In this document: in pieces, positions 17,972 through 63,456 of the stretch
How the letters are laid out: every line of letters starts with the position of its first letter
How positions within the stretch are numbered: position 1 is the first letter of the stretch
Assembly (NCBI GenBank): GCA_050951325.1
Contig: JBMNIW010000001.1
Coordinates: 320,001 to 384,000 of the forward strand
Direction of reading: 5' to 3'
Origin: Clostridia bacterium
Lineage (GTDB): Bacteria; Bacillota; Clostridia; UBA1212; DUPL01
Length of the DNA stretch: 64,000 nt
Translations under genes and position numbers: made by a program
Notes under the pieces: generated by a model
Databases searched by the model: none
The model's input: only the letters and a program-made list of their open reading frames with translations
What the model was told of the DNA's origin: nothing

Positions 17972-19792
17972 TTAAATATTATTTACCACTACCCCTCCAT
18001 CGGATTTGATAGTCTTTCCACTCTTAAGCGTATACTCACCAGCTTTATGAAAAACAAAGATATGGCCACCATTTCCAAACTCAACACCTTGAATCAACGG
18101 AGTGTTTACAATGTTTTCGACCTCAAGCTTCTTCGAAGCGTCAATAACCGCATATGAAAACTTTGAACCCTTTGGACTTGTTCCATGACTTATCCCAATT
18201 TTAAGCACATCCACCGCAACAGTTTCCGTCGGTATATTTTTGTTGTTTCTTCTCCAGCTTCCTGTAACTTTGGCGTATGTGTATTCCAATTTCCGTTCAG
18301 GATCCAAATTTATGTATAAAAAAGAACCGTTGGTTATTACATTACCATCTACCTGAACATTGAAGTTGTCCTCAAGGACGCACTGATTTATTGTTGTCCA
18401 TATTTCCTTGTCATTGTTCTGCTTATGACAGCAAATATTCGTACCCAGTACTATGACACCTTCGTCAAACACAATATACGTAACAGTTCCTGTCAGCATA
18501 TCCCTGTTGTCAAAATCCATGGTCATGGCGCCTTTTCCGTTCTTTATACTGGCATAACATTTATCATTCAACCCAATTTTACTATTCCAGATGTTCAGCC
18601 TGTTTAGCACATCCTGTTCACTTTCAATATATGATGTGGTACCAGGCATCATGGAATAATCCCATACAGCAGGCATGTTTTCATATTCCTTTCCTGTACT
18701 CAAAAAGCACATGTTTGTGCCATAGGACAGGTTGTAACCGAGAATGTTTTCTCCATTCAAGCTTTCCGAACCTATAAGGGTGTTGTTCAAACCTTTAATG
18801 GAGATATAGAAGTTTTGACGCTGATGAGTCAGGACAAGACTGTCTTCAAAGAATTTTGTCTCCTTTATATATGGAGTTCCATTGTCATACGCAGTTATAA
18901 ATGCTTCAAGATTGGCTTTTCGCGGAATAGATGAAGTTTTTGAATACAGTTCCGCAGCTCGTCTAATTGCTATACTGGTATATGCCTCCGGCCTGCAGTA
19001 TTCACGACCTATGGCAAGATAGTCAACAGTACCGTTTCTAATCATGTACACTTGACCTTCAAGCAAAAAGTCAACAAGCAGCTTCAGTATTTCTTTAGAG
19101 AACTGATATTCAGTTCCTGATAGTATGTATACCATTGGTGATAGGGATTCTGTAAACGATCTGCCATACCCCATTGTATAATGCTGGGGGCCATGCTGGA
19201 AGAAGCTGTAGTCAGGCTTTACTCCTTCCTTTAAGCCATCTGCAATTTCAAACTCATAAGAGGCACGATCCACCGCCTTTTTCAAAAGCTCACAGTCCTG
19301 AACAAGGAGGGCATGCTTTACTGTAGTCCATACACCCCATATCAGATTGGCACCTGTCATGTTATATGCATGCTGATTGTGGGAAAAAGAACCTCTTTGA
19401 ATAATTGAAACAGCTTTGTCAAGCTCCTCTTCTGTTAACTCATCCTCCAGCATTATTGTCAGGTCACACAAAGCAGAAGGCACACCTATTTGCATATACC
19501 ACCAGTTGGTGTTTTGAAAATCATGCTTTAACCAGTAGCGGAAAGCGCCAGCAAGTTTATCAAAAAGCTCCTTGTCCATATCTCTTCCGTACCGCTGCAG
19601 TACAAGGCGTGTTCTATTCAAGAATGTATGTCCCTGCCAGTTAGCAGTGTTTGAATCTTGACAATTCAAATCTGACCATCTGTACAAATCACCCTCGTTT
19701 TGCAACAAAGGCAGATACTCCTCCGCATCTTCCACATTACGCCACAGATATTCATAGTACCTCTGTTTTATAACCATTAAATCCTCTATCAA
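17972..19792 (-). CDS. Polysaccharide lyase family 8 (chondroitin/hyaluronate lyase-like)
   Basis: NWWYMQIGVP, TGANLIW, DYSFFQHG, GYG, GREYCR, ESLNGEN, WDYSMMPGTT; no signal peptide. Confidence 0.85.
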   Translation of the reverse strand: MIEDLMVIKQRYYEYLWRNVEDAEEYLPLLQNEGDLYRWSDLNCQDSNTANWQGHTFLNRTRLVLQRYGRDMDKELFDKLAGAFRYWLKHDFQNTNWWYMQIGVPSALCDLTIMLEDELTEEELDKAVSIIQRGSFSHNQHAYNMTGANLIWGVWTTVKHALLVQDCELLKKAVDRASYEFEIADGLKEGVKPDYSFFQHGPQHYTMGYGRSFTESLSPMVYILSGTEYQFSKEILKLLVDFLLEGQVYMIRNGTVDYLAIGREYCRPEAYTSIAIRRAAELYSKTSSIPRKANLEAFITAYDNGTPYIKETKFFEDSLVLTHQRQNFYISIKGLNNTLIGSESLNGENILGYNLSYGTNMCFLSTGKEYENMPAVWDYSMMPGTTSYIESEQDVLNRLNIWNSKIGLNDKCYASIKNGKGAMTMDFDNRDMLTGTVTYIVFDEGVIVLGTNICCHKQNNDKEIWTTINQCVLEDNFNVQVDGNVITNGSFLYINLDPERKLEYTYAKVTGSWRRNNKNIPTETVAVDVLKIGISHGTSPKGSKFSYAVIDASKKLEVENIVNTPLIQGVEFGNGGHIFVFHKAGEYTLKSGKTIKSDGGVVVNNI

Positions 19793-54498: not shown

Positions 54499-56253
54499 CG
54501 ATAGTTTGACACTTGCTCACATATCCGATTTTCAGAAAAGCTCATAATATGAGCTTTTTTTATATATTTTTTGTCAAATTTCCCTAGTTAGCTATTGCGT
54601 AATGTCTCGTAATGTGATATAATATCAGGTATTGGAGGTGTCATTATGGCTATTAGAGTATCAATATCTAAATCAAAAAATGCCAAGTCATACTATCTGA
54701 TAGAAGATGTTGTGAAAAATGGAAAGAGAACAACGCAGATAAGAGAAAAACTTGGCACTCATGAGGAACTGCTTAAAGAACTTAACGGACAAGATCCGTA
54801 TGAATGGGCTAAGAAATACGCCGAGGAACTAAATAGAAAAGAAAAAGAAAACGAACAGGAAAAGAATATTATCGTTAAGTATTCCCCCACCAAGCAAATT
54901 ATGAAGAATAAACAGAATACATTTAATGGCGGTTACCTGTTCTTGCAGAAAATCTATTATGAACTGGGTTTGCATAAGATTTGCGATGAAATATCTGAAA
55001 AATACAAGTTTGAATATGACTTGAACTCAATACTCTCGAGACTACTATACAGTAGAATAATATACCCTTCCTCAAAACTATCTACGTATAAATTATCAAA
55101 AAGATTTTTTGAGCAGCCCAATTTTGACTTGCATCATATATACCGGGCCTTAAGTGTTTTGGCGGAAGAAAATGATTTCATACAAGCCACAATCTATGAG
55201 AACAGCAAAAAAATATGCAATAGAAATACCAAAATACTATACTACGACTGTACAAACTATTATTTTGAAATTGATTACGAGGAAGATGACAAGAGATATG
55301 GTTATGGGAAGGATCATAAGCCAAATCCCATAGTGCAAATGGGACTGTTCATGGACGGAAGCGGCATCCCTCTTGCTTTTAGCATCAATAGAGGTAATGC
55401 CAATGAACAAACAACAATGGTACCACTGGAAGAAAAGATACTATCTGACTTTAATCTGGCAAAATTTATTGTTTGTACAGATGCCGGATTGTCATCAACA
55501 GCAAACCGGAAATTCAACGACAAAGGCGACAGGGCTTTTATCACAACCCAGTCTGTAAAAAAACTAAAAGAACACTTGAAAAACTGGGCCTTGAAACCGA
55601 CGGGATGGAGTTTGCCAAATGACAGTACAGAATATGACATCAGCAAACTTGATGAAGAAGAATACAAGGACAAGGTTTTTTACAAAGATCGTTGGATTAA
55701 GGAAGACGGTTTGGAACAGAAACTAATAGTGACATTTTCATTCAAGTACAGAAAATATCAACAGCAAAAGCGCCAAGTTCATATCGAAAAGGCATTAAGC
55801 TTGCTTGAAACAGAACCGCAAAAATCAAACAAGAAGCGAAACAGCGACTACAAACGTTTTATCAAAAGCGTTAATTGCACAGAAAGTGGAGAGATAGCCG
55901 ATAATGAAGTTTATTATATTGACGAAGAACTTATTGCCAACGAGCAGAAATATGATGGGTTCTATGCGGTATGCACAAACCTTGATGATGATGCTTCAGA
56001 AATTGCAAAAATCAACCATAGACGCTGGGAAATAGAAGAATGTTTTAGAATAATGAAAAGTGAGTTCAAAGCCAGACCTGTTCATTTGAAAGACAAGGAT
56101 AGGATACTTGCACATTTTGCTACATGTTTTATGGCATTAATTCTGTATAGAATACTCGAGAAAAGACTTGAAGAAAAATATACATGCTGTGAAATTATTC
56201 AGTGTTTGAGAGATATGAATTTTACAGACGAAAATGGGTATGGATACAAACCT
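54499..56253 (+). mobile_element. IS1634-family element; transposase (start 54646) 3'-truncated, right end deleted
   Basis: YYDCTNYYFE, QMGL, TDAGL, RWEIEECFRIMK; after GYGYKP the frame reads antisense of the neighbouring ATPase. Confidence 0.85.
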
Positions 56254-56582
56254 TTATTAGAGTATTTTTTTCGAATTTCTAAATATCCTTGTTCATTAAG
56301 TAGGTGTTCTCGACTTAAAGATGTAGATACTCTCTCATCCAATACAATTTCCTCAGGTAGCTCGTCAAATGAACAGCCAATTTCTGTGTCTTCATCAGTG
56401 AGAAAGACATTCTTGTCTTTTAGATCGATTTTTGTTTGATTAAAAAATATATCAAGGGCCTCAAGAATTGTTGATTTCCCAACATCATTTTTCCCTATTA
56501 ATGCAGTTATTGCATCGATACGGATTCTGGTTTCGTGGCTATATCCACGGAAATTCTTTATTATGACCTCTTTTAATTTCAT
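56251..56582 (-). pseudogene. OLD/AAA_15-type ABC ATPase, 5' fragment
   Basis: IKNFRG and Walker A GKNDVGKSTILEAL; truncated at about 110 aa where it abuts the transposase. Confidence 0.8.
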
Positions 56583-56606
56583 AATCACACCTCTATTATC
56601 TTAAAT

Positions 56607-56721
56607 ATCCAACCTGACCACACAACCTCAAAAACTTCCGAAAAAACATCTAACCTGACCACTCACGACCCCTGACATCTAACCCGACCACTCGCGGGGC
56701 TATGACATCTAACCTGACCAC
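56607..56721 (+). repeat. Four direct repeats ATC(T/C)AACC(T/C)GACCAC
   Basis: Copies at 56607, 56648, 56677, 56707. Confidence 0.9.
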
Positions 56722-56859
56722 TTGACTATCAAAAACCGCTCTTATGGACTTGTTCCCGCGAAGCAAAAAAATCTCATTTTTGTTTGATGGATTTTACACC
56801 CATATGTGCTAAAAGCCTTGATATATAAGCCTTTCTCACATACTCACTCTTTTACCCTC

Positions 56860-56916
56860 GACATCAATGTCACGCACTCAACGTGTGATAGGTAGGTGTT
56901 CGCGGAAACAAGTCCA
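56860..56916 (-). other. att-like junction of a serine-recombinase element (rlmD-derived)
   Basis: Minus strand GAC TTG TTT CCG CGA ACA (DLFPRT) ... CAC GTT GAG TGC GTG (HVECV) then ATTGATGTC arm. Confidence 0.65.
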
Positions 56917-56990
56917 AAATGCAATGAAAACGCTTGATTTTACAGGCGTTTTACGCATTCATCAGAAGTGCCGACGTCCAATCTGTTAAC

Positions 56991-57398
56991 TCACATAAGT
57001 AGGCTATTCTGCAATTTCCTAACCAGCGTCACATCAGCAGGGAGCCAATTAACATTGAACAATTCATTTTTATTAAGCCATCTTGCAGATTCTGCTTCCT
57101 TAAGAATAATCTCTCCATCTATCACAACACACCAAAAGCAATACATACTTAAATGAAAATCAGAATAATCATACTCGATGGTCTCAATCAGTTCACTGAC
57201 CTCGATTTTTACGGCGAGTTCCTCTTGGATTTCTCTTATTAGTGCTTGTTGCGGTATTTCTCCAGCTTCAATCTTACCTCCAGGAAATTCCCATTGTCCT
57301 TTAAACTCGCCACAACCTCTGGCGGTAGCAAAAATCTTTGTAGGGTTTTCCAAAGAATCGCAAATGACTGCAGCTACCACTTTTATTGTTTTCATCAC
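56991..57398 (-). CDS. Nudix hydrolase, MutT/NudG-like
   Basis: WEFPGGKIEAGE...ALIREIQEEL Nudix box, WLPAD. Confidence 0.92.
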   Translation of the reverse strand: MMKTIKVVAAVICDSLENPTKIFATARGCGEFKGQWEFPGGKIEAGEIPQQALIREIQEELAVKIEVSELIETIEYDYSDFHLSMYCFWCVVIDGEIILKEAESARWLNKNELFNVNWLPADVTLVRKLQNSLLM

Positions 57399-57399
57399 A

Positions 57400-58272
57400 T
57401 TATTCCTCAGCTAAAAAGTCAGATATGTAGTTAATTTCAGAAAGATAGCTATTATTTATTACGGAAGCCTCAACAAATATCTTTGCAAGCTCACGATTAA
57501 TCTCAAACAGGTATCCCATATTTCCGTTTCCATTCTTATCAAACGGAGAATATTTCACCTGGCATAATCTAATAATATCATCTTTAAACATTGATGTTTT
57601 TACAGGATTCCTAATTTCTATGTAATCACAATCAACTCTACGGCCGTCACGCTCCCATAGCCCTTCAACTGTTAATTCGTTTGGTTGAACACATTCATAA
57701 CAAGGCGCCTTTGCAGTACTAATTGCTTTTACATATCCATCATAGCCATGTAGGATTATATCACCCTTGCGAACATCAAGAAGGCGTGTCCAGTGATGAG
57801 GCATAGTTCCTGCTTTATTTGAAATAGGTGCCCATATATACCCGCCACTAAACTCTTTGTCAAAGGTGTTCCCTTGGAAAACAAAGAATGTCATACGCTT
57901 ACCTTCAATACGCTGAGAACGAGCAACTGGCTTCGGAATATATCCTGTTTTATGTGATACTGCAGCACCCTTTACTACTTCCGCAGCGATTTTTCTTTCT
58001 TCCTCAACTTTGCGAGCTGCTAGTTCTGCCTGACGTCTTTCTTCCTCAGCCTTTTTTACAGTCTTGATTTCGTCCATAATTGAAGCCTGTACTGACGCAT
58101 CATCAGCCACTATGAACTTTTCAAAGGAGTCTGGGTATAGAAACTTCGATTCTTTCGCCGCAAATTTGATAGTCAAATAATTACCTGAAACCTCTGTTAT
58201 AACACCTTGACCAAAGGCTTTATGTTTTACTTTTATATTTAATAAATCTACACCATTCATTATAATCTCCAC
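57400..58272 (-). CDS. SH3/Tudor-like domain + coiled linker + EVE/PUA-like domain protein
   Basis: VKHKAFGQGVI...FLYPDSF N-terminus; FFVFQGNTFDKE..GGYIWAP...GDIILH...GNGNMGYL resembles the reader domain of EVE-HNH modification-dependent nucleases. Confidence 0.6.
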   Translation of the reverse strand: MEIIMNGVDLLNIKVKHKAFGQGVITEVSGNYLTIKFAAKESKFLYPDSFEKFIVADDASVQASIMDEIKTVKKAEEERRQAELAARKVEEERKIAAEVVKGAAVSHKTGYIPKPVARSQRIEGKRMTFFVFQGNTFDKEFSGGYIWAPISNKAGTMPHHWTRLLDVRKGDIILHGYDGYVKAISTAKAPCYECVQPNELTVEGLWERDGRRVDCDYIEIRNPVKTSMFKDDIIRLCQVKYSPFDKNGNGNMGYLFEINRELAKIFVEASVINNSYLSEINYISDFLAEE

Positions 58273-58290
58273 CTTATAACATGTAAATTT

Positions 58291-59217
58291 CTATTGTTTC
58301 CTTTGCTTCGAACTGTATTTTTTGCTGCTACGATGAGTGCCGTCATCGTCCGTCACGACGTTACTCCTTTTGAATCTTTCTTCTTGAACGGCCCTGAACT
58401 CGCTCTCCGTAATGATCGGCGGATGACATTCTTTCATTTGGAACTCATATTGCTGTGTTGCGAAATCTAAAAGTGTAACTGTACCTGTGTATTTCTCATT
58501 TTCGAGCATCTTCTCTATAGAACGCTTGCTCCATGTTTCTTTACCAGTAGGAGAAGGGACGCCTGCTAGTGACAGTTTCTTGATGATACCAAGCACGCTG
58601 GCGCCATCCAGATACCATCTAAAAATGTCCCGCACAACCTTAGCCTGTTCATTGTCAATTACAAGGTCCCCATCCTTATTCTTAGAGTAGCCGTACAGCT
58701 TTCGTTTGTAGAGTCCAGATGTTCCATTTGCAGCTTTCATGGCAAGTCCCATGCGGATATTTTCGCTTCGGCTCTCATTTTCAGCTTGAGCAAAAGACTC
58801 CATCACCGAAATCATAAGATTGCTGTCAACCTCATCGGTATCCAAATTTTCTTCTTCAAATATGATTCTGACTCCTGCTGTCTTCAATCGATTGATTGCT
58901 GATAATGTCTCTACAGTATCTCTACCAAATCGACTGATGCTTTTGGTAAGGACAACAGAGATATTGTGCGCTTCACATTCTCTAATCAATCGATCAAATT
59001 CTCTACGTGGAACTTCGCCTTTGGCAGACGCAATATCAATAAATACATCTGCCAGCCTCCATTGACTCATATTCGCAACTGCTCTCGTTAAAGCAGAAAT
59101 CTGTGCTGCGAGGCTATAAAGCTGTTCTTTTTCGTTCGTACTTACTCTGCAGTAAATTCCGACTTTCTTTTCTAAACGGTCATTCTTTACCGGGATATAC
59201 CAGATTTTTGAATCCAC
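58291..59217 (-). CDS. Serine recombinase (catalytic + recombinase domains, no zinc ribbon)
   Basis: YCRVST, KSISRFGR, AQAENESRSEN, LYGY, NEKYTG, HPPIIT. Confidence 0.92.
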   Translation of the reverse strand: MDSKIWYIPVKNDRLEKKVGIYCRVSTNEKEQLYSLAAQISALTRAVANMSQWRLADVFIDIASAKGEVPRREFDRLIRECEAHNISVVLTKSISRFGRDTVETLSAINRLKTAGVRIIFEEENLDTDEVDSNLMISVMESFAQAENESRSENIRMGLAMKAANGTSGLYKRKLYGYSKNKDGDLVIDNEQAKVVRDIFRWYLDGASVLGIIKKLSLAGVPSPTGKETWSKRSIEKMLENEKYTGTVTLLDFATQQYEFQMKECHPPIITESEFRAVQEERFKRSNVVTDDDGTHRSSKKYSSKQRKQ

Positions 59218-59341
59218 AAGCTCACCTCCTGTTTTAATATAGCCTAATTATATCACGTTTTATCGCCAATGATAAGTAGGCAATTATTGCTCATTAAATG
59301 CGTGAAATTACAACATATTGTGTCCGCGTAATCTCTTTCAG

Positions 59342-59404
59342 CTACATATTGCGCGTTATCAATACTACGCACTCAACGTGCAACGAGCGGGGTGGATTGA
59401 TGTC
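59342..59404 (-). other. att-like junction carrying an rlmD/rumA-type 3' end
   Basis: Minus strand GACATCAAT arm, then CAC GTT GAG TGC GTA GTA TTG ATA ACG CGC AAT ATG TAG = HVECVVLITRNM*. Confidence 0.75.
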
Positions 59405-59487
59405 TTTTACATTGTCGGTAGTCGGAAACACGTCATCGCCACTTTTTGCACTATCGGTAGGCGGGAACATATCGACATATATAATAA

Positions 59488-61269
59488 CTACCCTTTCAAA
59501 ACTCTAAACATTTCTTCTTTATGCTTTCTTGCTTTTTCTTCCGTCCATTTTTCATCATCGAAGTTCACCAACTCTTTCATAATCTTGAGTTTCAAACTTT
59601 GTTCTATAATACTTGGATATGAGGTGATTTTTCCCTCTGGTGGTAAATTAGAAAACTTCGAGTTTCCTGACACTGTAATTAATGCGAGGTTGCCAAAGCC
59701 ATCAAGGTCATCTGCTTCCCAGCTTTCACCTTCAACGGGATTTTGAGGTTGAAAGTGTTCAATGGAACTTCTAAATTGGAACTGCCACTCATCATATAAT
59801 GGAGGAATAATTTCCTTGCCCAAGTAAGAATAACCATTCTTATATAAAAGATAATCAAGGTAAGTAAATACGATTCTTTCAAAACCAAATCCACTAGAAT
59901 TCTCAAACTTTGATTCGAAAACTTTTGTTTTGCAGTAATCTTCAAGTATTTCAATAATGTCACATGATTCATTTTCTAATAAGCTTGTTAATATTAATGA
60001 AATCCAATGCATAGTTTTAGGTGATGTGTAGGTTATACGCAAGCAGGATTGCAGAGTTCTTAGTTGTTTATTATTCTGACTATTGTCCTCACCAAATGTT
60101 CCTACATATTTGGGTTTATCACCTTTCCCATCATTATACCTTTCTAAACGTTGTAACGACCATTTCCCAGTTTCTTTATAATCTCTAGCATATTCACGTT
60201 TCAATATATATTTATCAAACAGTACACGGCATTTTAACATATGAAATAAAAAGTTCTTTGCTTTATCAGCGTCCCCCCAGGCCCATGATAAATTATTTAA
60301 GAAATGTTTATCATCAAGGGTTGAATCTTCCTCTTCTAAATTATTAAGTACAGCATTTATCTGAAGTAAAAAATTTGGGAACGAAATAATCGATTCAAAA
60401 CGTTCATTCTCAACTTCATCCTTACTTATTTCATTATTAAAGAGTTTCTTGTTTTTTAGAATCTCAATCAAAGGAACTAAATTATTGTCTTCATCTTCAC
60501 TATGAATAAATTCCTTAATTGTATCAAAATCGTTAATATTATCCCTGATACTAGACCAATCATTTGTAAAAAGATACTTTCTAACACTGGGATCAAAATT
60601 CATTTGTATATACGAGTCCATGTTAGAGCATTTTTCCCAAATCAATGCTGCCGTTTTTTTATCTTGTTCTGTATCCAATACTTCTAAAAATTTTGCTTTT
60701 GCTATTTCATGAAGTTCAAGTTGCTCGCCACGAGTATTCATGATTTCAAAATAATGATTTAAATCTATACCTTGTGGAACTTGTACACGAACAATAAAAA
60801 CACTTTCCAGTTTTTTAGTTAAATCATTTTTATCTATATTATTAGATTTAAAATAGCTATCAATTATTTGATATCCCTTTAAGATTTCAACAGATGCTAA
60901 TTCCTCTATTAGCTCATTCTTGTTTCCTTTGCTTAGCATGTTAAGGGTACGGTTTGATTTTTCCCGTGCTTCAAATCTCAACCCATCTTTAGCAAAATTC
61001 ATACCAAGATAACTTTCTAATAGAAATAGTGTTGTCAACCTCTGTTGCCCGTCTATTACTTCATAAACATTATCATCCCTTTGATTAACAATTAGGTTTC
61101 CAAGAAAGTAATTTTTATTAGAGTCGCCAATAGAGCTATCAATATCTTCTATCAATTGTTCTATCTCCGATACTCCCCAAGCATAGTTGCGTTGATATAT
61201 AGGAACTATATAATGAACATTAGTAAAAATTTTTGATACCGGTATGATTCTTATATTTTTATCCATCAT
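59488..61269 (-). CDS. DUF262 + C-terminal HNH (DUF1524) protein, GmrSD/SspE-like
   Basis: PIYQRNYAW, DGQQRLTT, FEIMNTRG; SIEHFQPQ...GNLALI...NS. Confidence 0.88.
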   Translation of the reverse strand: MMDKNIRIIPVSKIFTNVHYIVPIYQRNYAWGVSEIEQLIEDIDSSIGDSNKNYFLGNLIVNQRDDNVYEVIDGQQRLTTLFLLESYLGMNFAKDGLRFEAREKSNRTLNMLSKGNKNELIEELASVEILKGYQIIDSYFKSNNIDKNDLTKKLESVFIVRVQVPQGIDLNHYFEIMNTRGEQLELHEIAKAKFLEVLDTEQDKKTAALIWEKCSNMDSYIQMNFDPSVRKYLFTNDWSSIRDNINDFDTIKEFIHSEDEDNNLVPLIEILKNKKLFNNEISKDEVENERFESIISFPNFLLQINAVLNNLEEEDSTLDDKHFLNNLSWAWGDADKAKNFLFHMLKCRVLFDKYILKREYARDYKETGKWSLQRLERYNDGKGDKPKYVGTFGEDNSQNNKQLRTLQSCLRITYTSPKTMHWISLILTSLLENESCDIIEILEDYCKTKVFESKFENSSGFGFERIVFTYLDYLLYKNGYSYLGKEIIPPLYDEWQFQFRSSIEHFQPQNPVEGESWEADDLDGFGNLALITVSGNSKFSNLPPEGKITSYPSIIEQSLKLKIMKELVNFDDEKWTEEKARKHKEEMFRVLKG

Positions 61270-62574
61270 CTACCACCTATTCCATTCACAAAGTAAATCA
61301 TACACATCCCTGTACTTCTCTTTGTTTTTATTCTCAATTTTAGGTTGCTCTAAAGAAATGAGTTTTAATTCTTCTCCGTTTTTCATTTCACTGATTTCTG
61401 AAAACATACCTAATCCATAGTTTACGCGTTCATGTTCTCCTCGCACATATTTATTAATTGTCTGTAGATAGACAGCTTCCATAACCAGCCGCAAAGAATA
61501 ACTCCAAGTATATAATTGCTGCATCACAGCTTTAGATAGGTTTTCAATTCCAAAGCGATCAGCAAAAAATAATAGCGCACATTCATATAATTGTTTAATG
61601 TAAAGATCTCCAGTGCGTCTACTCGGAACTTGTTCCTCTGTATGAACTTTACTCACTAATCTTTGTACTTGCTCAAGTAGATTTCTATAATGTAGAGTGT
61701 AATAAAAAAATCGCTTTCCTGCCATAAGAGGCTGTGTTAATTGAAATTGATTTAATGCTCTAGATGCAAGTAATTCATTGCTTCCATTTGCATTAAACTG
61801 TTCTACAAAAAGATTACTTGCTTTATGATAAATCGCATAATTAAATACATTTGTGGTTTTAATCCCTTTGAACACATCTATTTTACTAGATGAATAGCCC
61901 AAACCACTCTTTCCTTTATACCATTGGGTCAATGGGTAAAGATAGATTTTAAATAGGTCATTCAAATCATCTTGGTTTACATTTTCCCATTGGTTGATAA
62001 TCCTTATTTTTTGGTTTTCCTCTTCATCATTCATCTCGCGTAAATGATATGACTTTAATAAATCATGTGGGGCTAACTCCTTACCGCGCGAATTTTGTGA
62101 ATCGAAGAATTGAAAAGCCTCTTGCTCACTGTCTGTAACAATTTGAACTACACTACAACGTTCGAATAAATAATTTTTGTACTTGTTTTGCTCATCTTTC
62201 GGTAGCTCACTTATTCTCTTAGATAAAATTTCATAATTAGTTACAATCACATCGTTAGACAGTTGATTGTATTTTTCTTGTAATAACCCCAGATCCTTCT
62301 CACCTAAACAGTATAGAAGAATCGAAATAGTTGTCAGTCGTTGTTGGCCATCGACAATGTTATACTTTCCGTTTTCTTTATGTAAAATTACTGAACCAAC
62401 TCTATATTCTTGTAAACCTTCATGGTATGCATTATAAGTATCTTGAAAAAGCGTATTTGCAGACTTCACACTCCAACTATACGGGCGCTGATATGGTGGT
62501 AAAGCCAATTTCATATGAAGTAATTCATGAATCTTTCTTATTTTTAATTCATCTTGAAGCAAAGCCACCTGCAA
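61270..62574 (-). CDS. DUF262 domain protein (no recognisable HNH)
   Basis: PPYQRPYSW, DGQQRLTT, FFDSQNSRGK. Confidence 0.88.
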   Translation of the reverse strand: MQVALLQDELKIRKIHELLHMKLALPPYQRPYSWSVKSANTLFQDTYNAYHEGLQEYRVGSVILHKENGKYNIVDGQQRLTTISILLYCLGEKDLGLLQEKYNQLSNDVIVTNYEILSKRISELPKDEQNKYKNYLFERCSVVQIVTDSEQEAFQFFDSQNSRGKELAPHDLLKSYHLREMNDEEENQKIRIINQWENVNQDDLNDLFKIYLYPLTQWYKGKSGLGYSSSKIDVFKGIKTTNVFNYAIYHKASNLFVEQFNANGSNELLASRALNQFQLTQPLMAGKRFFYYTLHYRNLLEQVQRLVSKVHTEEQVPSRRTGDLYIKQLYECALLFFADRFGIENLSKAVMQQLYTWSYSLRLVMEAVYLQTINKYVRGEHERVNYGLGMFSEISEMKNGEELKLISLEQPKIENKNKEKYRDVYDLLCEWNRW

Positions 62575-62590: not shown

Positions 62591-63169
62591 TCAAATCTCG
62601 ATTATGTAATATTTACGACCGTCACTTAAATCCTGCCAGATAAAATCATATCTGCTTGTCAATGCAATGCTATCTTTATTTTTTCCTACACCTGTTGGCT
62701 TAAAAATACAACCGTAAACAGAATATTCTTCTCTAAAAAACCTATATATACCTTCATTGTTGCGCCCTTCATAAAAAGGTCTATCTGAAACAAGAGCAAC
62801 AGCAGCTGTTTTAGTAAATCCTCGGTTCTTAAGCTCCTCCATAAATTTAATATCCTTCACGAACGAATACATCTGTTCTGGATACTGGCCATTTAATGGG
62901 CACTTAAGTTCAATTGCATATTTCTCTGATTTATCTTCATTAAAAATAGTAATATCTACTTCTTTTTTTATAGTTTTATTGTCTGGTGTAAAGTATGATA
63001 CATTTCTTTCAAATTGAATACGATAGTCCGGAAGCTTTTCACGTAGGAATATCCCCAGCTCATGCTGGAGGCTAAACTCATTATAAATTTCAATACTCTT
63101 AGACTGAACAAACAAGAAAAAGTCATCTACTAATTGCATTAAATTAAGCAAAGCCTCCACCCCATACAC
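62591..63169 (-). CDS. Putative PD-(D/E)XK nuclease
   Basis: NEFSLQHEL helix, EVDITI...AIELK, then DIKFME. Confidence 0.6.
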   Translation of the reverse strand: MYGVEALLNLMQLVDDFFLFVQSKSIEIYNEFSLQHELGIFLREKLPDYRIQFERNVSYFTPDNKTIKKEVDITIFNEDKSEKYAIELKCPLNGQYPEQMYSFVKDIKFMEELKNRGFTKTAAVALVSDRPFYEGRNNEGIYRFFREEYSVYGCIFKPTGVGKNKDSIALTSRYDFIWQDLSDGRKYYIIEI

Positions 63170-63222: not shown

Positions 63223-63456
63223 TCAAACCTTCTGATACCTCTGCTGGTTAGATGAGGCCTTTTCAATTGCCTTTATATTACCTTCCATTTTATTTACGTA
63301 GTTTAAAAATAAAGTCCCAAGCAGAAGTCGATCCTTTCTGGGTATTCTATTCCATACATAACCCTTGAACAAATCTTTAACAAGAAAGACTTCACCTTCA
63401 TTCAAGTTTTCAGTTTCCTTAATAGCTTCTTCTAGTAACTCATTAACATCACCCAT
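63223..63456 (-). CDS. DUF1413-like small DNA-binding protein
   Basis: EVFLVKDLFKGYVW...LGTLF...QQRY; AGGAG SD. Confidence 0.7.
   Translation of the reverse strand: MGDVNELLEEAIKETENLNEGEVFLVKDLFKGYVWNRIPRKDRLLLGTLFLNYVNKMEGNIKAIEKASSNQQRYQKV

Follow-up and report, generated by a model that had tools for sequence, protein, structure and literature searches.

What does a protein that is predicted to read modified cytosine do when it carries no nuclease, and why does the gene for a nucleotide-hydrolysing enzyme follow it? The question is raised by a locus in a 64,000-nucleotide stretch of a Clostridia bacterium genome (positions 320,001 to 384,000 of the forward strand of contig JBMNIW010000001.1, assembly GCA_050951325.1), which we refer to as the window and number from its first letter. 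There, an EVE-domain protein, here called the reader, and a Nudix hydrolase are encoded side by side on the minus strand, and the original prediction took the two genes for a candidate anti-phage module. Our answer is graded. In general terms, we read the locus as a modification-sensing, defence-type module with a partner that would clean the pool of modified deoxycytidine triphosphate (dCTP), a reading that we judge about equally likely to be right or wrong. A more specific version is tentative: a nuclease-free, type IV-like immunity in which the EVE domain would read modified cytosine in invading DNA, a Tudor domain would use RNA polymerase or UvrB as the effector and the Nudix enzyme would destroy modified dCTP, all within a self-mobilising cassette of 2.5 kb. 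The two genes and the parts of the reader are as follows.

58260-57400, minus strand: the reader, 286 amino acids from ATG 58260 (290 from GTG 58272), with a Tudor domain, a long helix, a linker, an EVE domain and C-terminal helices; open reading frame with a ribosome-binding site, AlphaFold model with a predicted local distance difference test (pLDDT) score of 82.6, 409 homologues.
58233-58105, minus strand: putative five-strand Tudor barrel of the PcrA/UvrD type, residues ~10-52 of the reader; profile, Foldseek, VIA and Pfam PF21196.
58098-57967, minus strand: long charged helix, residues 55-98, then a low-confidence linker, residues 97-122; secondary structure and pLDDT of the AlphaFold model.
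57894-57496, minus strand: EVE domain of the VcaM4I type, residues ~123-255, with pocket residues T132, E136, W143, P145, W202 and Y250 and wedge M248; profile, Foldseek and conservation.
57495-57403, minus strand: three short C-terminal helices, residues 256-286; model, with no nuclease or other Pfam domain.
57395-56991, minus strand: Nudix hydrolase of the MutT/NudG type, 134 amino acids from ATG 57395 (135 from GTG 57398); PF00293, PDC-S07 and TIGR00586.

We do not regard these genes as chance open reading frames because the reader has 409 homologues at E<=0.001 and 42 columns are invariant among 37 aligned members. The C-terminal half had been likened to the EVE/PUA domain of VcaM4I, and this likeness is borne out by two methods. 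VcaM4I is the one strong PDB match of the 37-member family profile (E 1e-32, residues 122-260 of the query against 4-143 of the chain), and it is also the top Foldseek match of the AlphaFold model (6yex, E 1.1e-14, 35% identity), followed by EVE, YTH and ASCH structures, a ranking that supports a PUA-like beta-barrel fold for this half of the protein. As described in the cited sections of PMC7897488, P24, W82 and Y130 of VcaM4I sandwich the flipped 5-methylcytosine (5mC) or 5-hydroxymethylcytosine (5hmC) base, its Watson-Crick edge is recognised by T11 and E15 and by main-chain contacts from Q10 and W22, and Q128 is the intercalating wedge. The HMMER alignment places P145, W202 and Y250 of the reader at the sandwich positions, T132 and E136 at T11 and E15, N131 and W143 at Q10 and W22, and M248 at Q128. 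This pocket is strongly conserved in the 37-row alignment: W143, P145, W202 and Y250 are found in all 37 rows each, E136 in 35, and position 132 is T in 34 and S in three, while the wedge position 248 is M in 36 of the 37 rows and Q in one. At E<=0.01, the Pfam EVE model PF01878 has no match to the window protein or to the 37 members. It does match more distant EVE-McrB proteins (L034 and L037); it appears that this model does not reach the branch to which the reader belongs.

The absence of an HNH nuclease behind the EVE domain, also claimed from the letters alone, holds across the aligned members, as Pfam finds no HNH, PD-(D/E)XK, PLD or GIY-YIG nuclease domain in the window reader or in the 37 members. 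In the model, only ~30 helical residues follow the EVE domain. The closest relatives outside the family are EVE-HNH proteins, and EVE-McrB proteins that are accompanied by McrC are also related (L032-L034). One sub-branch of readers (L020 6007-7275, L022 1179-2411, L023 6001-7245 and P0221) has an extra conserved C-terminal domain of ~130 amino acids with the motifs FYPSRFVGY and HKFWE. This domain has no Pfam match and its Atlas clusters are unnamed, the nearest named one being EVE on 28% of members. The first EVE pocket of P0221 looks degenerate.

The N-terminal motif had been compared with the Tudor/SH3-like domain of PcrA and UvrD, and domains of this type are indeed the top match by profile, Foldseek and VIA, each weakly. 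Six PDB sequences match, at E<=10, a profile that was built from residues 1-58 at 25 loci, and all six are C-terminal domains of UvrD or PcrA (E 0.0019-0.57). When folded alone, the N-terminal domain reaches a pLDDT of 85.6, and UvrD/PcrA Tudor domains occupy Foldseek ranks 1-7 (E 0.013-0.065, template modelling score 0.51-0.69). In the VIA all-against-all comparison they take ranks 1-3 (Z 7.1-7.2, root-mean-square deviation 1.5-1.8 over 46-48 residues), with CarD next (Z 6.7). The Pfam model PF21196 matches six of the 37 members at E<=0.01 (best 0.00077), and one homologue (L012) scores 30.1 bits, which is above the cut-off. The three methods, each weak singly, agree that the N-terminal barrel is closer to the PcrA/UvrD Tudor than to anything else in the PDB.

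In PcrA, residues H681, W684, K712 and L714 were mutated to probe the binding of RNA polymerase, and point mutations in the domain cut binding greatly (cited sections of PMC5397179). H13 of the reader, which corresponds to H681, is present in 37 of 37 rows, and position 16, corresponding to W684, is occupied by F, L, Y or W. The HMMER alignments do not extend to the equivalents of K712 and L714, which are positioned by spacing alone; on this basis the lysine would be K39, which is K in 30 of the 37 rows and R in two. The PcrA C-terminal domain is described as docking on a TGE beta-hairpin of RpoB and UvrB with the motif [VIL]D..TGE[VIL][VILT] (cited sections of PMC8318588). In the host genome, translated in six frames, this motif occurs twice, once as VDPQTGEIL in an open reading frame that Pfam confirms as RpoB. 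A relative that consists of the Tudor domain only (matching residues 4-65, 42% identity, E 3e-9) is encoded, unannotated, in the gut phage record MT835621.1 at 19365-19550.

How often is such a reader coupled to a Nudix enzyme? We surveyed a genome sample with one genome per species, which gave 38 loci; 26 of these encode the full Tudor-EVE protein and 23 can be judged downstream, since the sequences of L010, L014 and L024 end too soon. A Nudix gene directly follows the reader in 12 of the 23 (L001-L004, L007-L009, L011, L012, L015, L022 and L028), and a weak Nudix remnant of 88 amino acids in L018 was left uncounted. From metagenomes, the best 80 of 125 relatives include 64 full-length matches, 56 of them with at least 400 nucleotides downstream, and a Nudix gene is adjacent in 32 of the 56 (31 downstream, and one, L112, directly upstream). 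Counted as lineages at 90% identity, the adjacency is found in 10 of 17. In a single case the two are fused (P0109, locus L071 3983-5248, an open reading frame of 421 amino acids). The Nudix enzymes paired with readers belong to two clades that are 29-36% identical to each other. The window reader groups with readers linked to type B, and its own Nudix is of type A. Co-divergence of reader and Nudix was considered and rejected, as both the type and the presence of the Nudix are scattered on the reader tree. The coupling is recurrent but modular, and does not look like a co-evolved pair.

The Nudix enzyme itself matches PF00293 (5.6e-18) and also NUDIX_4 in Pfam, and residues 1-131 match positions 3-130 of the 135 in the PADLOC model PDC-S07 (E 2e-47). 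The expected MutT/NudG-like character stands: the protein barely exceeds the cut-off of the MutT equivalog TIGR00586 (98.3 vs 97.9 bits), falls below other equivalog cut-offs (92.3 vs 148 bits for NF008044 and 74.7 vs 156 bits for the NudG model NF007834), and has as its closest solved chains a putative CTP pyrophosphohydrolase (3gwy, 7e-23), MutT proteins, the E. coli CTP pyrophosphohydrolase (2rrk, 1.3e-12) and MutT2 (5zrc). The E. coli enzyme NudG prefers 5-methyl-dCTP. Residues G39, G40, K41, E46, R54, E58 and E59 of the Nudix box are invariant in 35 aligned homologues. The family is found at E<=1e-20 in 37 of the 398 genomes scored in a 400-genome sample of the class.

The neighbours of this Nudix family were surveyed separately in the 29 closest homologue loci from the class sample. 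In seven of them (L043, L045, L046, L048, L050, L054 and L065), the Nudix gene adjoins the DUF3427 C-terminus of a SauUSI-like helicase-nuclease, and the Nudix enzymes directly after these DUF3427 genes are 48-63% identical to the one in the window. In others it adjoins the PLD-helicase start of a SauUSI-like enzyme (L066), a GmrSD C-domain protein (L042), an McrB-like AAA_5 protein (L060), an HNH protein (L068) or a C5 methyltransferase (L053). A conserved MutT/Nudix gene beside more than 60 SauUSI enzymes was reported in 2011, its function left open (cited sections of PMC3141236), and MutT homologues beside SauUSI homologues are mentioned in a figure legend of Bell et al. 2020 (PMC7641849, main text). 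The model PDC-S07 is merely listed in the cited part of PMC11514479. A Nudix domain is fused to an N6/N4 DNA methyltransferase in L062 (682-1896, minus strand, 404 amino acids), beside a D12-class adenine methyltransferase. In a Verrucomicrobia metagenome-assembled genome (L032, 4340-10268), a gene for a MazG-like pyrophosphohydrolase overlaps the start of a 999-amino-acid EVE-McrB protein (AAA_5), which is followed by McrC (DUF2357 and PDDEXK_7). Enzymes of two unrelated folds that split (deoxy)nucleoside triphosphates, Nudix and MazG-like, accompany modified-cytosine sensors.

The two genes lie in a cassette with a third gene and defined ends, whose remaining features are these.

59358-59380: left junction repeat, with the cassette boundary at 59380; 23-nucleotide direct repeat and similarity breakpoints in other contigs.
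59247-59275, minus strand: promoter-like sequence TTATCA-17-TATAAT with TG, located ahead of the recombinase gene; agrees with the consensus at 10 of 12 positions.
59217-58291, minus strand: serine recombinase, 308 amino acids, its C-terminus lacking zinc ribbon and coiled coil; Pfam Resolvase 3.2e-31 and Recombinase 1.9e-20, phrog_95 integrase 4.9e-81.
56863-56885: right junction repeat, with the cassette end at about 56854-56877; 23-nucleotide direct repeat and similarity breakpoints.

The serine recombinase is located directly ahead of both genes, as described from the sequence, and ends 18 nucleotides before GTG 58272. ATG 58260, which lies 8 nucleotides downstream of AAGGTGGAG, is the likelier start of the reader. 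Its stop codon (TAA, 57402-57400) is 1 nucleotide from the Nudix start, as had been stated, if that start is GTG 57398, and 4 nucleotides from ATG 57395, which is preceded by GAGGA. No terminator-like sites were found between the cassette genes, and an Rfam scan of 56000-60000 at E<=0.1 gave no RNA family. The promoter-like pattern occurs at 10 sites in the region against 7.8 expected, so that the site upstream of the recombinase is a pattern match only.

The two att-like junctions noticed in the letters turn out to be real ends of an element. The repeat of 23 nucleotides is direct and 20 of 23 positions are identical between the copies; a second block is common to both ends, 30-55 nucleotides farther outward. 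These three genes recur in other contigs with a DNA identity of about 95%, and at least four of these contigs have the same cassette ends and flanks unlike those of the window. Similarity to the window breaks on the left at exactly 59380 in L002, L072, L074 and L075 and at 59381 in L073, and on the right at 56877 (L072 and L076), 56854 (L075), 56811 (L001) and 56655 (L073). Delimited by these breakpoints, the recombinase, the reader and the Nudix gene form a discrete mobile unit of ~2.5 kb that is found in different flanks. The recombinase is intact in L001 and L002 (95% amino acid identity). With no Zn_ribbon_recom match in Pfam and an end at 308 amino acids, it does not have the full architecture of a large serine recombinase, and a neighbouring paralogue of 526 amino acids aligns with its first 282 amino acids only.

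Two further observations concern the ends of the cassette. The DNA just outside the left end (59381-59460) resembles that just inside the right end (56886-56960), each with a GAC-TGTTTCCG block and then a CACGTTGAGTGCGT core. Because these stretches are alike, the upstream segment from the 526-amino-acid recombinase to GmrSD may itself be an element of this type, and the small cassette a tandem insertion at its end. In L075 (545-1918) and L021 (4267-5871), a rumA-like gene for an RNA m5U methyltransferase is located directly upstream; the rumA-like open reading frame of L075 extends 39 nucleotides into the left end of the cassette, an overlap that points to the 3' end of this gene as the integration site in that genome.

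Taken together, these features are compatible with the following mechanism. When DNA of a phage or of other foreign origin enters, the EVE domain, to judge from its pocket, would flip out and bind its modified cytosine, be it 5mC, 5hmC or one of their derivatives. The Tudor domain would dock the reader on a host machine, either the TGE hairpin of the RNA polymerase beta subunit or UvrB, and would act as the effector: transcription of the marked DNA would be blocked by arrest, or host nucleases or excision repair would be recruited to it. Docking of this kind, which we propose from the fold and the conserved residues, would replace the built-in HNH nuclease of EVE-HNH enzymes. The Nudix enzyme would hydrolyse the matching modified dCTP and so clean the pool; the effect would be to starve the invader of its precursor, to prevent incorporation of the modified base into host DNA, or both.

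A number of results count against this reading. As regards the Tudor domain, the window protein scores 16.3 bits with PF21196, below the gathering cut-off of 23.9; the Foldseek E values for the Tudor are all above 0.01; a VIA Z of ~7 is common for small barrels, and Z <8 may be generic; and the equivalent of PcrA K712 is mapped without certainty. The reader has no match in PADLOC or NCBIfam and one of 0.042 in PHROGs, within the charged helix; in Pfam it has the sub-threshold Tudor match alone. The pairing is also incomplete from both sides. About half of the readers are without a Nudix. On a reader tree of 22 rows, the Nudix state needs eight changes, a number equalled in 45 of 200 shuffles; the tree left out L001 and L002, which are near-identical to the window, and L014, L024, L028, L030 and L036, whose frames are broken or split. 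Because the Nudix clades do not track the reader tree, a specific co-evolved complex is not favoured. Of the predicted recurrent pairing, the part seen from the reader stands (12 of 23 genome loci and 10 of 17 lineages) and the part seen from the Nudix family does not: the Nudix is not dedicated to the reader, because only one of its 29 loci has a reader-like neighbour, a weak one (L041, upstream), and many lie beside type IV-like genes. Deletion of the SauUSI-linked Nudix gene in Staphylococcus aureus did not relieve restriction, according to the cited sections of PMC3312211. In the metagenomes, the commonest lineage (16 of 56 loci) is located among housekeeping-like genes, and the sole viral copy, the fusion in a phage head-gene module, would also fit a role on the side of the phage.

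The distribution of C5 methyltransferases among carriers belongs to the same side of the balance. No PF00145 C5 methyltransferase is found in the host genome, which is 96% complete, and this counts for the reading. Such an enzyme is present in 8 of 24 other carriers and in 178 of 400 class-sample genomes, a comparison in which the carriers are interrelated and of uncertain completeness, and the eight include the two genomes with near-identical cassettes, which have seven and two PF00145 matches. The idea that carriers avoid C5 methyltransferases was therefore rejected. Because carriers have them about as often as other genomes, it is doubtful that 5mC is a simple non-self mark; either the cell tolerates binding to its own 5mC, or the preference of the reader is for a different modification or sequence context.

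Among the alternatives, the one that survives best, unlikely as we consider it, is that of a trans-acting specificity adaptor. The reader would direct a separate nuclease, the product of a neighbouring gene or of a distant one (HsdR, SauUSI-like enzymes, SLFN-type helicase-nucleases or GmrSD), to the modified DNA, and the Tudor domain would bind that partner and not RNA polymerase. The evidence for it, which also counts for the main reading, is found in the neighbourhoods of the reader, where the defence-island settings that had been anticipated recur across genome and metagenome loci. The reader-Nudix pair is located between hsdS and hsdR in L003 and L004 and after hsdM in L028; the reader lies directly after a SauUSI-like gene in L010 and adjoins SLFN-type (SLFN-g3) helicases in L006, L012 and L111, GmrSD in L111, an HNH_4 gene in L112 and a TIR protein in L007. 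An adaptor role was proposed by Bell et al. 2020 for standalone EVE proteins beside type I restriction-modification systems (PMC7641849, main text). However, the neighbours vary from locus to locus with no conserved candidate partner among them, and the cassette of the window takes only its recombinase, reader and Nudix genes along when it enters unrelated flanks. In L016, L098, L103 and L108 the reader lies behind large serine recombinases.

Quite unlikely, in our view, is a mobile repair or house-cleaning unit, in which the EVE domain would recognise cytosine that is damaged, for example by oxidation, the Tudor domain would bring in excision repair through UvrB, or else an RNA polymerase that has stalled, and the Nudix would remove the oxidised dNTP. 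Such a role would suit a Nudix that reaches the MutT equivalog cut-off and has MutT proteins among its best solved relatives, and the Tudor domain of UvrD binds UvrB (PDB 7egt, among the top matches; cited sections of PMC8318588). Some settings of the reader do not fit defence, as it is followed by a HAD hydrolase in L027 and by an SRAP (abasic-site) protein in L094, the latter being a point in favour of repair. Against this, the Nudix family has a patchy, accessory distribution (37 of 398 genomes), the settings are defence islands and mobile elements, and the pocket is identical to that of a restriction sensor that binds 5mC and 5hmC.

We hold it to be improbable that the module protects the element or a phage, as a counter-defence. 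The reader would then coat the modified cytosines of the element against host type IV enzymes, or compete with PcrA/UvrD at RNA polymerase, and the Nudix would adjust nucleotide pools. A reader without a nuclease, carried as cargo of a recombinase cassette, would be in keeping with this, as would the Tudor-only relative in the gut phage record. The fusion protein is also relevant here: it is the one copy in 2.9 million viral contigs, encoded in a phage-like IMG/VR contig of 14,793 nucleotides (L071) after the terminase and SPP1-type portal genes and an open reading frame of 419 amino acids and just before the scaffold gene, a moron position in the head module. Yet prophage morons are often defence genes, and defence genes typically show the kind of placement seen here, within host restriction-modification operons and next to type IV genes. 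No full-length reader is found in 50,697 phage records, and none of the 88 matches in 72,556 plasmids covers at least 80% of the query; the plasmid matches listed cover the EVE part only and are annotated as HNH or restriction endonucleases. A mainly phage- or plasmid-borne reader was rejected on these counts.

Very unlikely is a methylation-reading transcription factor, whose EVE domain would bind methylated sites and whose Tudor domain would contact RNA polymerase and so regulate nearby genes: the protein is small and non-enzymatic, joins a DNA-reader domain to a putative RNA polymerase-contact domain and occurs in some carriers with C5 methyltransferases, but there is no conserved target operon in its varying contexts and no helix-turn-helix domain, and the coupling and fusion to the Nudix would be left unexplained.

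The surroundings of the cassette in the window are themselves rich in genes of related kinds. Just upstream (59488-62574, minus strand) is a DUF262-family pair, a 434-amino-acid protein with GmrSD_N and DUF7834 and a 593-amino-acid protein with GmrSD_N and GmrSD_C, predicted from its domains to be a type IV-like modified-DNA system; the PADLOC models HEC-06, Orf5 and SspE match the N-terminal parts only. Between this pair and the large recombinase are a protein of 192 amino acids (62591-63169, minus strand) with no family match in any library searched and a 77-amino-acid DUF1413 protein (63223-63456, minus strand). Downstream of the cassette is an AAA_15 ATPase of 129 amino acids with an AriA/OLD/GajA-like N-terminus (56199-56588, minus strand), cut by an insertion sequence that encodes a DDE transposase of 597 amino acids (54646-56439, plus strand). 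Just upstream of the truncated AAA_15 gene, at 56605-56726, are four copies of a 22-nucleotide direct repeat (ACATCTAACCTGACCAC...), spaced 41, 29 and 30 nucleotides apart, which resemble iterons or operators.

Returning to the reading of the locus as a modification-sensing module, several of its parts have been described before. These are the EVE domain, standalone EVE proteins next to type I restriction-modification systems, and the Nudix family with its link to SauUSI (PDC-S07). The Tudor-EVE architecture, its pairing and fusion with a Nudix and its packaging in a recombinase cassette of 2.5 kb were not found in the literature searched, supplements being outside its scope, and that literature contains no work linking the EVE domain, Nudix and defence. 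To our knowledge, every characterised type IV system couples its modified-base sensor to a nuclease or an NTPase-nuclease. If the specific version is true, a sensor of the same lineage with a Tudor domain that docks on the polymerase or UvrB would represent a different way of acting on modified DNA, and a small nuclease-free reader of modified cytosine would be a possible tool. The survey also sharpens an old loose end, namely the reason why genes for restriction of modified cytosine are accompanied by MutT-like Nudix genes and, here, by a MazG-like gene as well, and it offers a testable idea, the sanitation of the modified-dCTP pool. The cassette, with its recombinase and defined ends, is a compact example of the movement of cargo between gut Clostridia. 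In the main text of the BMC Biology survey of EVE proteins (PMC7641849) and the cited part of the BREX paper, no bacterial Tudor-EVE fusion is described, and the only mention of a pyrophosphohydrolase in the former's main text is the figure legend on MutT homologues.

How, then, does the module compare with known systems? It shares its Nudix family with the MutT/Nudix enzymes linked to SauUSI and with PDC-S07. The partner here, in contrast, is a 286-amino-acid reader without a helicase or PLD nuclease, and PADLOC lists the Nudix as a single-gene candidate. With E. coli NudG (Orf135), MutT and mycobacterial MutT2, the Nudix enzyme has the fold and the Nudix box in common, whereas it scores below the NudG cut-off and its gene is accessory and patchy (37 of 398 genomes). 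Like the standalone EVE proteins of type I restriction-modification systems, the reader is nuclease-less and is found in or beside hsd operons (L003, L004 and L028); those proteins, however, are mostly archaeal and often have ASCH domains, according to the main text of PMC7641849. The Tudor of PcrA/UvrD is the best match in sequence and fold for residues 4-53, and of the two PcrA residues needed for RNA polymerase binding, the histidine is conserved and the aromatic one is an aromatic residue or Leu here, although the similarity is weak, partner binding is putative, and the copy in the reader is N-terminal and joined to an EVE domain instead of a helicase. Finally, the EVE domain is homologous to that of VcaM4I (35% identity) and keeps all residues that stack on or hydrogen-bond with the flipped 5mC or 5hmC base. 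Unlike VcaM4I, the reader has neither an HNH nor any other nuclease, carries Met in place of the wedge Gln128, and has an additional N-terminal Tudor barrel and a long helix.

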